A stretch of 63,876 nucleotides of DNA, filler included, from Rhizaria sp. SCN 62-66 (GCA_001724265.1; 3 parts of 3 records of this genome joined end to end with filler, not necessarily neighbours in it), one strand, 5' to 3'. Positions 1-63,876 are shown, numbered from the whole stretch's first letter. A program made the numbers and translations. The notes: generated by a model not told the origin, from the sequence alone.

Positions 1-1
1 G

Positions 2-391
2 CTCCGCACGATCATCCAGGCCCAGCTGACCGAACTCAAGCTGGAAAAGGACCTCATTATGGCCAAGATTGACGTCCGCAAAAATGTGGATGGGGCTCAG
101 GAACGGGTTACTTGTTTCCAAAAAGCCCTCGACGCCCTCAGGCTCTCCGCGGCGGCGCCTGGTCTGGTCTCCATCCGCCGTCGCCTCGAAAAGCTCAGCT
201 CGGACCTGGGTAAGACCGTTGACAAGGAGCTGCGCACGGCCATCCAGGCTTAGCTGGCCGAAGTCAAGCTGGAGAATGACCTCGCCGAGGCCAAGATGGA
301 CGTCCTCAACAAGGTGGACGGGGCTCAGGAGCGGGTTACTCGCTCCCAAGAAGCCCTCGATGCCTTCAAGCGCTCCGCGGCGGCACCTGTC
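2..391 (+). repeat. 228-bp (76-aa) coding tandem repeat, about 1.7 visible copies
   Basis: LRTIIQAQLTELKLEKDLIMAKIDVRKNVDGAQERVTCFQKALDALRLSAAAP (from 2) aligns with LRTAIQA*LAEVKLENDLAEAKMDVLNKVDGAQERVTRSQEALDAFKRSAAAP (from 230). Confidence 0.9.
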
Positions 392-1872
392 GGTGCGTTT
401 CTGTTTGCTGTTGCTCTTTGCTGTCGCTTTGTTGCCGTGCTTGTTTGACTGCTTAGTATGTTGGCTCACCTTTCTCTCTCTCTCTCTTTTTCTCTCACTA
501 CAGCGTCGTCACATAACACGACGCCGTACGTGACCACACTGCTCAAGACGCTCGCTGAGGTCGCGACGGCGCCCGCGCCCGACCTGCGCATCTACTAGCA
601 GACGGTCGTGCTGAGCGCTGCTACCCCGTCAGTGCAAGTTGGTGGCATCACCGGCCTCGTCCCTTTTCACGCGGCAGTGACCACCTTCCTCACCACCCCG
701 GTCTCGGTTGAGGATACTGAGGACCAGTTGCATCACCGCAACGACTCGTGGAACGCTGTCGTGCTCGCGGTCGCCAACGAGCCAGCGAAGCCCCTTTACC
801 GTTTGGTGCGCAACTCCCAATCGGCCACGTCGCAGCACGGCGCATCAACTTTCAATCCTTCGTCCCGCCCCGATTTCGTCATTCTCATGAATGGCTACGC
901 GAGCCCCGTCTTCGCCGAGGAGAAGGCCGCTGACTAGATCTCGCAGGCGGTCGAGGACATCGCCGAAAAGTTTTGGTTTGGCCCGTTTTTCCAGGATTGC
1001 GTCAACGGCGTGTTGGGCGTGGCCTTCGATGCCAGGACTCTCCAGCTCTACCAGCTCATTGGCAAGCAACAATAGCTCCTCGCTACGGCTGACCTGACGA
1101 CAGACGAAGGCAAGGCTAATGCGCTGAAGCTGGCCGTGAACGTGGGCCGCTGGCTCCGCCACATCCGCGAGCAAAAGCTTGTTGGCAAGTGGAAGAGGCT
1201 TATCAAGGTGGGTGACCGCTCTATCGAGTTGTCGTCCAAGGGCGCGGTCAAGCGGCTTCCCCTTGAGTCCAACCAGGTCAAGTGGATGCACCAGGTCTAT
1301 CGCAACAGCAATATTCCCTGTAGGGAGAGTCTGGAAGGGGACATCACGAAAGATCTCGGAAATGACCAATACAAGATGACCCTCTTCCCCATCGGCATGC
1401 CGCTGGACGAGCTGCTCGGCCGCGGCAAGGTGCCCGACCCGGTGCCCGTGCTGAAGGCCATCCTCTCGTTCTTCGTGGGGCTGCACGCGATTGGCTTCGT
1501 GTATATTGACCTGCGCCCGTCCAACGTCATCCGCGCCAACGAGGGCTACCTCGTCATCGACCTCGAGTTTGTGCGCCCCGTGAAAGAGACGGTGCCCGCC
1601 AACCTCAAGTGCCGAAGCGTACTGGAGGAGGCGGGTTTCGCGAAGATGGACATGACGGCGTCGACGTGCATGGACTTGGTGATGCTGCACGCGTTCATGG
1701 TCACCTGCAGGTGGACCGACAAGCAGGATCCCCACTACGGTTCGCTTCTAGCGTACCTCTCGGAGGTCGGTCCCGCGACGGAGCACACAGCCAGCGCGGC
1801 GCTCGACTCAACACCGCCTCGAAGCAGGTGTCGCAACCTGCGAAGAAGACGAGGACGAAGATGTCGCGCTAA
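2..1872 (+). CDS. Crinkler (CRN)-like protein, 5'-partial: helical tandem repeats + PD-(D/E)xK restriction-endonuclease-fold domain + protein kinase-like domain; contains four in-frame TAG codons (could alternatively be a pseudogene)
   Basis: Exons <2-392 and 504-~1872 (intron 393-503, GTGCGT...TACAG). One frame reads ...RNSQSATSQ...SSRPDFVILMNG..VFAEEK (REase PD...ExK as in CRN effectors), then LHAIGFVYIDLRPSNVI...LVIDLEF (kinase catalytic loop and DFG equivalent). In-frame TAG at 251, 596, 935 and 1073, with no TAA/TGA. GC3-rich codon usage switches frame near 1808 and ends at TAA 1870-1872, suggesting a small deletion or frameshift near the C-terminus. Confidence 0.7.
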
Positions 1873-2590
1873 TAATGGACTAACAGCAAGACAATCAAAG
1901 AGGTATGCAATCCTCAAAGGGCAAGTAATTCGACGAAAGACAGGGAAGGCAAGAGCACCAACGGATCACATCGACAACATCATTGAACGTTTCAAAGATG
2001 GGACACCAATTACAATGAGAGGGACATATACACACTTACGTAAGGTATATGAGAACATACGTTTTAATGATGTTCGAGCAAACTATGCAAAATATGATAA
2101 GCTTATCATACTAGTACAAACAATAAGGCCGCATCGCAATCGTCAGTTGACAATCAAGAAGCATATCGCAATGAGACCCTATCTTATCGTGGAGATTGAC
2201 CTTACCATTACACCACAACAATGGAAACATGAAATGATGATCCAAACAGCAAAACAAAAAAGCCGTATTACATTCTGACGTGTATCGATCAGTACACCAA
2301 ATACGCAGAGTGTGAGATTTGCACCGGGAAGGAGAGCAAGCGCGCCGAAAATGTCAGAAGGAGTGGTATCTTGAAACGACTACCACGAAAGCCTGCTGCT
2401 ATATCATGCGACAACGGTAGTGAATTCAAAGGTGAGTTCGAGGACTATATCAAAAAGAACAACATGAAGATGGTTTTCAGTGAGCCATATTTAATACAAG
2501 CCAGCCAAACACGGACAAGTTGTCGAACGGTTTAATAAGACATTGAAGATATCAGTCGATCGCTATTGTTACAATCGACATTCTGCATAA
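1873..2590 (+). mobile_element. Degenerate rve-family DDE integrase (Polinton/Maverick/virophage-type c-integrase-like) relic with two frameshifts
   Basis: Abrupt switch to AT-rich sequence. Motifs IVEIDL (first D, ~2190), YYILTCIDQYTKYA (2266-2307), ISCDNGSEFKGEF (second D, 2401-2439) and GQVVERFNKTLK (E, 2513-2548) are spread over frames, with shifts near 2232 and ~2500. Confidence 0.8.
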
Positions 2591-61608: not shown

Positions 61609-62597
61609 ATGTCCGTCAACTTTGCAGATTTTCCACCCGCTGTGATCGAGCGCCTCGCTGGTGGCGCTGCCAAGACCCTCGGTACGCTCTCGCTTTCACC
61701 TCTCATACTCTCGCGTGTCTTAACAAAATCATATATATATCAACTTAATTAAGATATTTACGTGTATATTTACGATATTTCGCATTCTATGTGTTGTAAA
61801 AATGTTATATCTTGATTTTATACCTTGAACCGCAAAAATACCTGACTTTAACTGCAAACTAACTCATCATATCTACTCGATCCCATACTCCCCTCGCTCC
61901 CTCGCTTGGTCCTCTCTCCCCCACCCAGGCATCTCCTACGACGTGATGCGCAAAGACGAGCTCGTTGCCTCCATGCTCATTACCGAGGCGCACCTCCAGC
62001 CCTTTGGCATCCTTCACGGCGGCGTCAGTGTGCTGCTTGCCGAGTCCGTCGCCTCTGTTGGCGGGTACCTCAACGTCGATCCGGCGCAGTCCGGGATCGT
62101 GGGACTGGAGATCAACGCCAACCACCTCGCACCCGGCATGCTCGGTGACACGCTCGTTGCGCGTGGGCGGCCTGTGCACGTTGGACGCAAGAACCAGGTA
62201 CGCAAAAACTGCCGTAAACCCGCAAGATTCTGAAACGAATACTGATCATGAAACGCTTTATAATGCAGATAAGTAACTGATAAGATCTTTACAAGACCTA
62301 ATATTGCGGTTTTTAATTTTTGTTGTGTTTATCTAAGTTTCGTGGTGTTTGATGTCTTGGATGCTCAAATGTGGATATTCGCTTGCTTTTTCTGTTGCTT
62401 GGTATCCTTCTTAGGTTTGGGAGATTCTGATCACTTCCAAGGCGACTGACAAGCTCGTGTGCATCTCACGCTGCACGATCGCCGTCGTCGCGCTCACCGA
62501 GCTTGAGAGCAAGAAGGGCAAGGGCCAGGCACGCGTTGTTGAAGTCAATAACAATAACGGCGACAACGGCGGTGTCAAGATTCCTGCTAAGCTCTAA
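61609..62597 (+). CDS. Hotdog-fold PaaI/MenI(YdiI)-like acyl-CoA thioesterase with C-terminal PTS1 (AKL)
   Basis: Exons 61609-61681, 61929-62197 and 62415-62597. HLQPFGILHGGVSVLLAESVASVG, IVGLEINANHL, PVHVGRKNQ|VWEI, LVCISRCTIAV. Ends KIPAKL-TAA. Confidence 0.9.
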
Positions 62598-63782
62598 ATC
62601 GACACTCTCTACTCGTTTTCTCTCTTAGAGACCTTGATGTGATACTACGCTTCTATTGATACTGCATAATGTATTGTAAGCGTGTACTGTTATGTAGTGT
62701 ATATCTATATATTGATACTCAGAAGAATACAAATAAGTGATTTGTAATGTAACGTTGACTCAAATGTGTGTGTTGGATATGTTCGGGCAGTGCACGATGA
62801 AAGCATATTATTGTTACGATTCAAAGTTATATTATGTGTATTATATCATGTTATTGCATCTTAAAATGATTCATAACACGAACACCAGCAACAGCAACAA
62901 AGCCCAAAAGTACTTCGTAACTTAGCACATTTAAGAGTGTTGACGCAGTGCTTGTTGTTATCGATAATTGTTGCTGCATGGTGTGTAAAGACGCTATTCT
63001 CGAGTCCAAACGGGACAACAGAGAGTAGCGTCGTGCCTGTGGAGGCTGCTGCCACAAGGCTAGCAAGGCTGACCCCAGTCACTTCACACTTAGCGCAGTC
63101 GCAGACACTGATACCCCCAAACTCCGAAAGCACACACGACGACGAATGCTGATACGAGTCGAGCGACGGCTGGTTGTGGATGTGAGCCGTCGAGTCTCAT
63201 CGTCGCGGGAGTGACAGTGGGAGCAGCAGTGAATGTGAGCAGCAGCGGCGGGTGACTAGGCCAACAGAGGAAAACTAAGTATAGATGAGAGAGATGACGA
63301 AAGGTAAAGGGAGGCGCAACCGCAGCTGAGAGCAACTGGAGTGCAGAGCTTTTGTGGTACAGAGTTGATAGAGCGAGTACGAGTGGGGGTGATGAGAGTT
63401 TTGGTAATAAATAGCACCACTATCAACTTGTAGCAACAAAAACAACGCAAGAAGCAGTGTGTGAATGTGGCTTCGATGTTTGCATGAATCAGCAAACAGC
63501 AAAGACACATCGCAGCGCGTTGCTTCTGCGCCCACACAAACCGTGAATGCTCGACATGTAGAGCACTAACGCAGCAGTAGCAGCAGCAGCGGCTGTGTTG
63601 CAAACCTCCTGAAAGCGAAAAACAAAAGAGACTATAAAGAAAACTAACGAAGAAAGCTCAGCACGCGGAAGCAGAGCTGAGCGAGGAAAAGAAAAGCGAA
63701 ATCAGATATTAAAAAGGCATCAACAACGGTTCCCTTTTTGTAAATATAATACCTTTTAATGTGGTGTTATATCATGAGGTAT

Positions 63783-63876
63783 TTACGCGATGTGGGCCAT
63801 GTTGTCGACCTTGGGGATGTAGTCGGTGCAGACCTCGTCGGGGTTGGTGGTGAGCTGGAAGATCTGGCCGCAGTGG
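63783..63876 (-). CDS. C-terminal fragment of a gene entering from the right edge, possibly cytochrome c oxidase subunit 5B-like
   Basis: Reads HCGQIFQLTTNPDEVCTDYIPKVDNMAHIA-TAA with strong host codon bias. xCGQ.F.L resembles the second Zn-binding Cys pair of COX5B. Only 30 codons are visible. Confidence 0.45.
   Translation of the reverse strand, partial: HCGQIFQLTTNPDEVCTDYIPKVDNMAHIA

Follow-up and report, generated by a model that had tools for sequence, protein, structure and literature searches.

Genetic codes that give UAG a meaning apart from that of UAA are listed for Iotanema, Scotinosphaera, an uncultured rhizarian, and a few ciliates, as well as for a ciliate that uses the two codons for different amino acids (PMC11687900). 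The combination of UAG as glutamine (Gln) with UAA as a stop is known from Iotanema spirale, Protocruzia tuzeti, Hartmannula sinica, and Trochilia petrani (PMC11687900, PMC9161772). Here we describe a window of 63,876 bases (the whole stretch of DNA analysed, from the assembly of Rhizaria sp. SCN 62-66, GCA_001724265.1), in which 3 of about 20 eukaryotic genes contain in-frame TAG codons, six in all. With a probability of roughly 0.5, we propose that UAG is read as a sense codon in this uncultured organism, probably as Gln, under a reassignment that is early or leaky. It is unlikely that a TAG = Gln code is already fully in place.

In I. spirale the GTS loop of the release factor eRF1 is changed to GGS (Panek et al., 2017, PMC5304391, as described in PMC9161772). 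The window would share with Iotanema a meaning of UAG apart from that of UAA, with Gln as the likely amino acid and UAA as the main terminator. Unlike this endobiotic fornicate, which is known from its transcriptome, the window organism is GC-rich and intron-bearing, and sense TAG is very rare in the window, with 2 in 14,290 codons outside one gene family. In Hartmannula sinica and Trochilia petrani, 78.2–91.1% of genes have at least one UAG, and a Codetta analysis found hundreds of UAGs at Pfam columns (PMC11687900, in its account of these two species). The codon, the proposed amino acid, and the retention of UAA as a stop are the same in these two ciliates and in Protocruzia tuzeti as in the window; however, the window TAGs are confined to three genes and none lies at a conserved column, in contrast to Hartmannula and Trochilia. 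The window's GC content of 52–71% and its GT..AG introns of roughly 110–270 nt are also unlike those of ciliates.

The closest parallel to the terminal-codon pattern of the window, where TAG is rare or absent at gene ends, is Euthynema mutabile. This species has a standard code and terminal UAG in 7 of 170 genes, which its authors regard as a possible first step toward abandoning UAG as a stop (PMC9161772). Unlike Euthynema, in which no in-frame UAG was found, the window has at least two ordinary genes with one. A related process is read-through, for which a 2026 preprint reports Gln codons and tRNA-Gln as drivers (PMC13192750). The window resembles UAG read-through with insertion of Gln by near-cognate tRNA-Gln in that a Gln codon follows three of its six TAGs. 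A CAR codon after UAG has a role in viral read-through. Known read-through is site-specific and partial, and occurs in hosts that widely use UAG as a stop, whereas no gene end in the window uses TAG. NCBI translation table 15 (Blepharisma), in which TAG encodes Gln and TAA and TGA are stops, would translate the window without breaks; as the table was defined on a ciliate, its use here is hypothetical. A literature search, with supplementary files outside its scope, gave no matching report of UAG reassignment in wastewater eukaryotes or aphelids.

In-frame TAG codons in an epimerase-like, an RGS and a CRN-like gene

The interrupted genes and their TAG codons are listed below; for the CRN-like gene, the state in paralogues (metagenome contigs L001 and L002, protein P0125) is added.

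30623–33562, plus strand: SDR/NAD-dependent epimerase-like gene, 979 codons, ending in TAA
30881–30883, plus strand: TAG30881, codon 87 of the SDR gene, at the head of a (CAG)5 run
41350–49532, minus strand: multi-transmembrane RGS gene, exon 1 from 49532 to about 47300, ending in TGA
48390–48392, minus strand: TAG48390, in exon 1 of the RGS gene, followed by CAA
2–2278, plus strand: CRN-like gene running off the left window edge, intron at 393–503, divergent kinase-like domain
251–253, plus strand: TAG251, in the N-terminal repeat of the CRN-like gene; CAG in the gene's own repeat 1 and in L001 gene 2, AAG in L002
596–598, plus strand: TAG596 of the CRN-like gene, followed by CAG; GAG in L002, Asn in P0125
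935–937, plus strand: TAG935 of the CRN-like gene; Gly in P0125
1073–1075, plus strand: TAG1073 of the CRN-like gene, preceded by CAA CAA; CAG in L001, Lys in P0125

The original prediction of six in-frame TAGs in three genes was confirmed at every position: at all six sites the TAG frame outscored the two other forward frames in codon log-likelihood, both over the 60 codons upstream and over the 60 codons downstream. No variant letter was seen at any TAG among the contigs of four sequencing runs aligned to the window. On both strands together, the window holds 912 TAA, 796 TAG, and 1729 TGA triplets. A strict scan, which kept a stop triplet if 60 codons on each flank outscored all five other frames, retained four TAGs (596, 935, 1073, and 30881), 0 TAA, and 0 TGA. 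Looser settings brought in TAG251 and TAG48390, along with some TAA and TGA triplets. The latter were rejected as sense codons: those at 446 (TGA), 13558–13585 (a TGA/TAA cluster), and 19402 are intronic, and those at 8640 and 45142 are antisense to long genes. TAA 6517 was rejected likewise; it lies, as do TGA 446 and the cluster, within an AT-rich intron.

A Gln codon (CAG or CAA) stands directly beside four of the six TAGs (596, 1073, 30881, and 48390) and TAG251 is aligned to CAG, in agreement with the earlier statement that five of the six lie at or next to Gln codons. By our own arithmetic from per-site rates, a Gln neighbour at four or more of six sites has a probability of about 0.005 under random nonsense (0.145 per site), and of about 0.04 if every TAG derives from CAG (0.259 per site).

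In the SDR gene, a single Pfam Epimerase stretch spans TAG30881 (protein residues 82–356, model positions 1–231 of 240), with the Rossmann motif before the TAG and the catalytic Tyr-x-x-x-Lys motif after it. The frame stays open and codon-biased for 892 codons after the TAG, and the protein has a low-complexity tail of about 600 residues. An exhaustive representative search with the SDR protein found 746 relatives at E ≤ 0.001; a word-based protein search found the window's own open reading frame (ORF) only. Nine of the 150 listed homologues were aligned, the best ones being 43–48% identical to the window protein. All nine have both halves in one chain and a variable hydrophilic loop (0–40 residues) at the TAG site, so that TAG30881 stands in a variable loop that offers no alignable column. 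Far downstream of the TAG, proteins P0131 and P0132 have a conserved motif near the C-terminus in common with the window SDR. An intron that would remove TAG30881 was rejected, as the local donor consensus is absent from all 93 in-phase GT..AG pairs and the region is GC-rich. A contig of run X3, from another study, matches 30000–31018, TAG included, with 0 differences. The 86-residue fragment that ends at TAG30881 was found on six contigs (JGI, Logan, ENA), and the downstream ORF of 865 residues on five. Each of the two fragments is alone in its cluster, and therefore no read-through variant is on record. TAG30881 is real and reproducible, and lies inside a coding loop.

In the RGS gene, ORFs of 386 and 439 codons abut TAG48390 in one frame, with hydrophobic segments on either side of the TAG, and the next in-frame ATG lies 176 codons downstream. 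The surroundings of the TAG are of low complexity. Within 41350–47227, the two halves of the RGS domain (model positions 3–40 and 75–113) are separated by a low-complexity insert of about 1,450 residues. An intron that would remove TAG48390 was rejected here too, with 0 of 149 in-phase GT..AG pairs having a consensus donor in a GC-rich region. No listed contig piece bridges TAG48390; the X3 pieces stop at 48196 and resume at 48404. Five ATG-started candidate RGS ORFs had no exact match in the protein collection. In line with the earlier expectation that annotation under the standard code will fragment genes of this organism, at least SDR and RGS are split by it, and the protein collection holds the 86- and 865-residue SDR pieces as ORFs of their own. 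SDR and RGS thus each have one UAG within an otherwise intact gene, in an open and codon-biased frame.

The CRN-like gene had no match in Pfam. A paralogue falls among divergent kinase-like proteins in the ESM Atlas, its top structural neighbour being a cluster with oomycete members. The CRN-like query found no match in the genome or viral contig collections, and one cluster in a word-based protein search. DNA of paralogues came from two short metagenome contigs only, L001 and L002, both from one metagenome scan. A further paralogue (P0125/P0127), 80% identical, is uninterrupted and has Asn, Gly, and Lys at TAG596, TAG935, and TAG1073. L001, a contig independent of the window, has two in-frame TAGs of its own: the first corresponds to Gln in P0125/P0127 and to AAG in the window, and the second, in the second gene copy, to CAG in L002 and in both window repeats. 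Taking window and L001 together, four of six TAGs of the family have CAG or Gln opposite them in one or more paralogues; opposite the remaining two stand Glu/Asn and Gly. The interruptions in this family are TAG only, mostly at Gln sites, and the gene body shows almost no frameshifts. Window copy and L001 differ by about 10% of nucleotides and by a single 3-nt indel in 297 aligned codons, which hints that the reading frame is still maintained in the family.

Two side observations concern the same family. Proteins P0126 and P0128 are distinct ORF fragments, about 94% identical, that both begin at the Met right after the TAG at L001:434; this TAG may be shared by diverged copies, which would argue against a dead gene. 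In addition, the paralogues have a 59-nt tandem duplication (L001:890–1010) that is read in two frames, so that two dissimilar stretches of peptide result. Only one 59-nt unit is present in the window copy (1800–1870), which is therefore shifted in frame. After the shift, its frame stays open for about 140 more codons (1850–2278) through AT-rich DNA, with no Pfam match. The L001 counterpart of this stretch is 3' untranslated region, where a TAA closes the frame. The open stretch could be due to chance or could be a new C-terminal extension.

Terminal codons in the window

We rebuilt 17 gene ends independently and obtained 10 TAA, 7 TGA, and 0 TAG, the same tally as in the original prediction. 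UAG is thus not found as a terminator in this small sample. Each of the 17 ends is followed by 150 nt of lower GC (0.29–0.51). The complete paralogous gene 1 on L001 terminates with TGA. The terminal codons are as follows.

2935–2937, minus strand: TAA of GMP reductase
7168–7170, plus strand: TAA of the NAD(P)H-hydrate dehydratase-like gene
11240–11242, plus strand: TGA of the low-complexity gene at 7412–11242
11534–11536, minus strand: TGA of the gene running from 15058 to 11534
15903–15905, minus strand: TAA of the kinesin gene
18923–18925, minus strand: TGA of the FYVE gene
22008–22010, plus strand: TAA of the MARVEL gene
24509–24511, plus strand: TGA of the GDPD gene
26628–26630, minus strand: TAA of the ATP-grasp gene, with TAG 27011 in the intron before the last exon
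33560–33562, plus strand: TAA of the SDR gene
34132–34134, minus strand: TAA of the legumain gene
41163–41165, plus strand: TAA of the ankyrin gene at 36172–41165
41350–41352, minus strand: TGA of the RGS gene
55353–55355, plus strand: TGA of the PHAF1-like gene
56774–56776, minus strand: TGA of the ankyrin gene running from 61090 to 56774
62595–62597, plus strand: TAA of the 4HBT thioesterase gene
63783–63785, minus strand: probable terminal TAA of a gene running off the right edge, with 30 open codons of third-position GC content (GC3) 1.0 before it and AT-rich DNA after it

TAGs at 5816, 27011, 28304, 39616, and 51274 were rejected as gene ends; all are intronic, following donors of the GTACGT or GTAAGC type, and the exons resume downstream. 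TAG 27011 in particular does not terminate the ATP-grasp gene, whose last exon covers the final part of the LAL_C2 model and closes with TAA. TAA is the commonest terminator in the window (10 of 17) despite a coding GC3 of about 0.85, which is unexpected under simple GC pressure; the preference fits selection for the most reliable stop.

UAG as a sense codon and its alternatives

If UAG is a sense codon in this organism, it would be no dependable terminator: ribosomes would decode it as sense, most probably as glutamine, and UAA and UGA would end every gene. The decoder would be a tRNA-Gln, either with a cognate CUA anticodon or an abundant near-cognate CUG species, that outcompetes an eRF1 of weakened UAG recognition. 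Selection would have cleared TAG from gene ends, and C-to-T changes at CAG would only now be tolerated, chiefly in variable Gln-rich loops. The very rare use of sense TAG outside the fast-evolving CRN-like family would then imply an early or leaky state rather than an established code. Rare sense TAG fits such an early or leaky reassignment, and it also fits two fixed null alleles. More specifically, and tentatively, reassignment may be at an early stage in which TAG has gone from gene ends and is returning as a rare, mildly deleterious Gln codon. Its share of Gln codons would then be about 0.4% in ordinary genes, against about 15% in a family under weak constraint, and loss of the codon through AT mutation pressure could not be the cause, as the genome is GC-rich. 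The earlier claim that UAG means Gln, or is partway to it, is thus upheld in part. Gene ends, embedded TAGs, Gln contexts, and the recurrence of the SDR fragments speak for it; the CRN-like sites turned out to be weak evidence and sense TAG to be rare. The case rests on two TAGs, those of SDR and RGS, and on the missing terminal TAGs.

Several findings weigh against UAG as a sense codon. Outside the CRN-like family we counted 2 TAG, 378 CAG, and 81 CAA in 14,290 codons. From the analogous ratio TTG:CTG of 93:458, about 77 TAG would be predicted among these codons; sense TAG therefore occurs about 40 times less often than would be expected of a neutral synonym of CAG, and its frequency is far from that of other sense codons. 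With the GC3-rich usage of the window (GC3 about 0.85), about 70% of nonsense mutations give TAG by our arithmetic, and the fact that all embedded stops are TAG consequently has little force; eight of eight TAGs corresponds to p of about 0.06 at this rate. Both TAGs outside the CRN-like family lie in low-complexity, non-alignable loops, and so have no conserved-column support. The missing terminal TAGs are not decisive alone. The p = 0.008 given earlier assumed 25% terminal TAG and is unsafe in view of the standard-code E. mutabile with 7 of 170; at 4% usage, 0 of 17 has a probability of 0.50 and is uninformative if the lineage seldom uses TAG. In addition, no match to a tRNA or any other Rfam family was obtained in the window, L001, or L002, no eRF1 gene lies within the window, and no listed RNA contig piece crosses a TAG site. 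A single 64-kb window cannot prove UAG reassignment.

The CRN-like copy adds to these counterpoints. At the positions of three of its TAGs, some paralogues have Asn/Glu, Gly, and Lys. Its ratio of nonsynonymous to synonymous substitutions (dN/dS) is 0.83 over 297 codons and 0.61 over 109 codons, which is near-neutral, and its TAG:CAG ratio of 4:15 is near neutral expectation. Relative to L001, it has a 59-nt frameshifting deletion near 1806, by the C-terminal tail, and its old tail frame has TAA where paralogues have GAA. The earlier statement that no TAA or TGA occurs in frame therefore holds for the frames as read, but not for this copy when it is set against its paralogues. Ordinary genes have been cleared of TAG, which is tolerated only under weak constraint. 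With extra lesions and relaxed constraint, the CRN-like window copy is probably a pseudogene or under weak constraint, and it is ambiguous as evidence on the code; SDR and RGS have no lesion other than their TAGs.

We consider it a real possibility, though short of probable, that the code is standard, that TAG is rarely used as a terminator, and that the in-frame TAGs are nonsense codons, with CRN-like pseudogenes on the one hand and recently fixed SDR and RGS nulls, arisen by C-to-T changes in CAG-rich tracts, on the other. The dN/dS values, the deletion, and the tail TAA of the CRN-like copy all support this explanation, as does the closeness of its TAG:CAG ratio to the neutral TTG:CTG analogue, compared with 2:378 in ordinary genes. 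By our arithmetic, a neutral copy of 574 codons with a synonymous divergence (dS) of about 0.06 per lineage should have gained about 2 TAG and 1 other stop; 4 and 0 were observed. TAG is moreover the commonest nonsense product under the codon usage of the window, and standard-code lineages with about 4% terminal UAG exist. However, 2 of about 19 ordinary genes must then each have fixed a premature stop without a second lesion, and both stops happen to be TAG and to be followed by a Gln codon. The SDR frame is open for 892 codons past its TAG and has, near the C-terminus, motifs common to homologues; this TAG recurs on six contigs and in a run from a different study, and intact alleles were not encountered. 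CRN-like paralogues have TAGs, yet almost no frameshifts in the gene body, and the absence of TAG at 17 gene ends would need a separate cause. An improbable explanation is that UAG is formally a stop, that the context TAG-CAR is read through appreciably often by an abundant near-cognate tRNA-Gln(CUG) without any dedicated suppressor tRNA, that SDR and RGS proteins arise by such programmed or leaky read-through, and that the CRN-like TAGs are pseudogene lesions. CAG or CAA indeed follows three of the six TAGs (596 and both non-CRN sites), for which the probability of three or more of six is about 0.001 by our arithmetic, with Gln at about 3–4% of codons. CAG is the dominant Gln codon (378 versus 81 CAA), from which an abundant tRNA with a CUG anticodon may be expected, and a leaky UAG would also account for its avoidance at gene ends.

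The usual read-through efficiency of a few percent would nevertheless serve a catalytic SDR poorly when the Rossmann motif precedes the stop, and the CAR context is absent at TAG251, TAG935, TAG1073, and both L001 TAGs. No read-through-promoting structure was seen, although no search was aimed at one, and on present data read-through is inseparable from early-stage reassignment. We regard it as very improbable that the TAGs are artefactual or masked, whether by repeat misassembly, a missed intron, a chimeric contig, or RNA editing back to CAG. TAG30881 does abut a (CAG)5 run, at which numerous foreign contigs accumulate with loose ends at 30882, TAG48390 is bridged by no listed contig piece, and the RNA data are too thin to argue against editing. 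Yet the X3 contig crosses 30881 with 0 differences, none of four runs has a variant letter at any TAG, and the SDR fragments recur on six and five contigs. A single Pfam domain continues in one frame from its first half before TAG30881 to its second half after it, and neither 30881 nor 48390 is within an in-phase consensus intron, both regions being GC-rich in contrast to the AT-rich local introns.

Gene content, source community and implications

The window contains four runs of N. Donor sites of its genes are of the GTACGT, GTAAGC, or GTGCGT type, and coding GC3 is about 0.75–0.95, in contrast to AT-rich intergenic DNA and AT-rich introns. The genes identified by Pfam are GMP reductase, NAD(P)H-hydrate dehydratase, kinesin, FYVE, MARVEL, GDPD, MORN, ATP-grasp, SDR/epimerase, legumain, two ankyrin genes, the multi-transmembrane RGS gene, PHAF1-like, and 4HBT thioesterase. 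Very large low-complexity inserts rich in Ala, Ser, and Asn interrupt or extend conserved domains of window genes; the insert in GMP reductase (2935–4809, minus strand) has about 250 residues. The N runs, of 44 bases each, form two pairs with 12 bases between the members (26041–26140 and 50470–50569). One of these pairs hides the end of the MORN gene, and a direct repeat lies beside the first pair.

Metagenome runs of several studies, on bioreactors, wastewater, and activated sludge, contain near-identical DNA. In a tree of GMP reductase, computed by a quick method from 37 rows that we picked among 120 listed matches, the window groups with environmental sequences only, apart from oomycetes, chytrids, and animals. 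The closest relative of the window GMP reductase is the JGI protein P0006 (81% identity over 295 aligned columns). Its place in a small environmental clade points to an unsequenced sister lineage.

Some of the runs also bear on transcription. The legumain gene is intronless, and run X6, of cDNA type, gave a contig of 1,737 nt that extends over 33784–35480 at a word depth of 78, with about 20 unmatched letters at either end; this contig is the best sign of transcriptional activity of the window organism in that sample. The legumain query had no match in the genome or viral contig collections. A contig of the poly(A) run X5 (39444–39891) is unspliced across a well-formed intron of the ankyrin gene (about 39592–39714). 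It represents either DNA carry-over or an unspliced transcript, and is uninformative on mRNA structure. The run contigs on the window yielded no splice junctions; the apparent joints were low-complexity artefacts with sides of 20–24 nt. Uncovered parts of the window and the small-share runs X6–X9, of which only X6 was aligned, were not counted as evidence.

If the standard code holds, the window is an ordinary stretch with one decaying gene family and two null alleles. Codes that split UAG from UAA are rare, and if UAG is indeed a sense codon here, a GC-rich, intron-bearing eukaryote would represent an independent origin of such a code. It would be the first UAG-only reassignment with genomic context outside ciliates and fornicates. 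It would also provide a natural test case for the "ambiguous intermediate" and "codon capture" routes of codon reassignment. If usage is truly as low as it appears in the window, the organism would offer a rare view of the transition state, and of whether loss of the terminator or gain of sense comes first.

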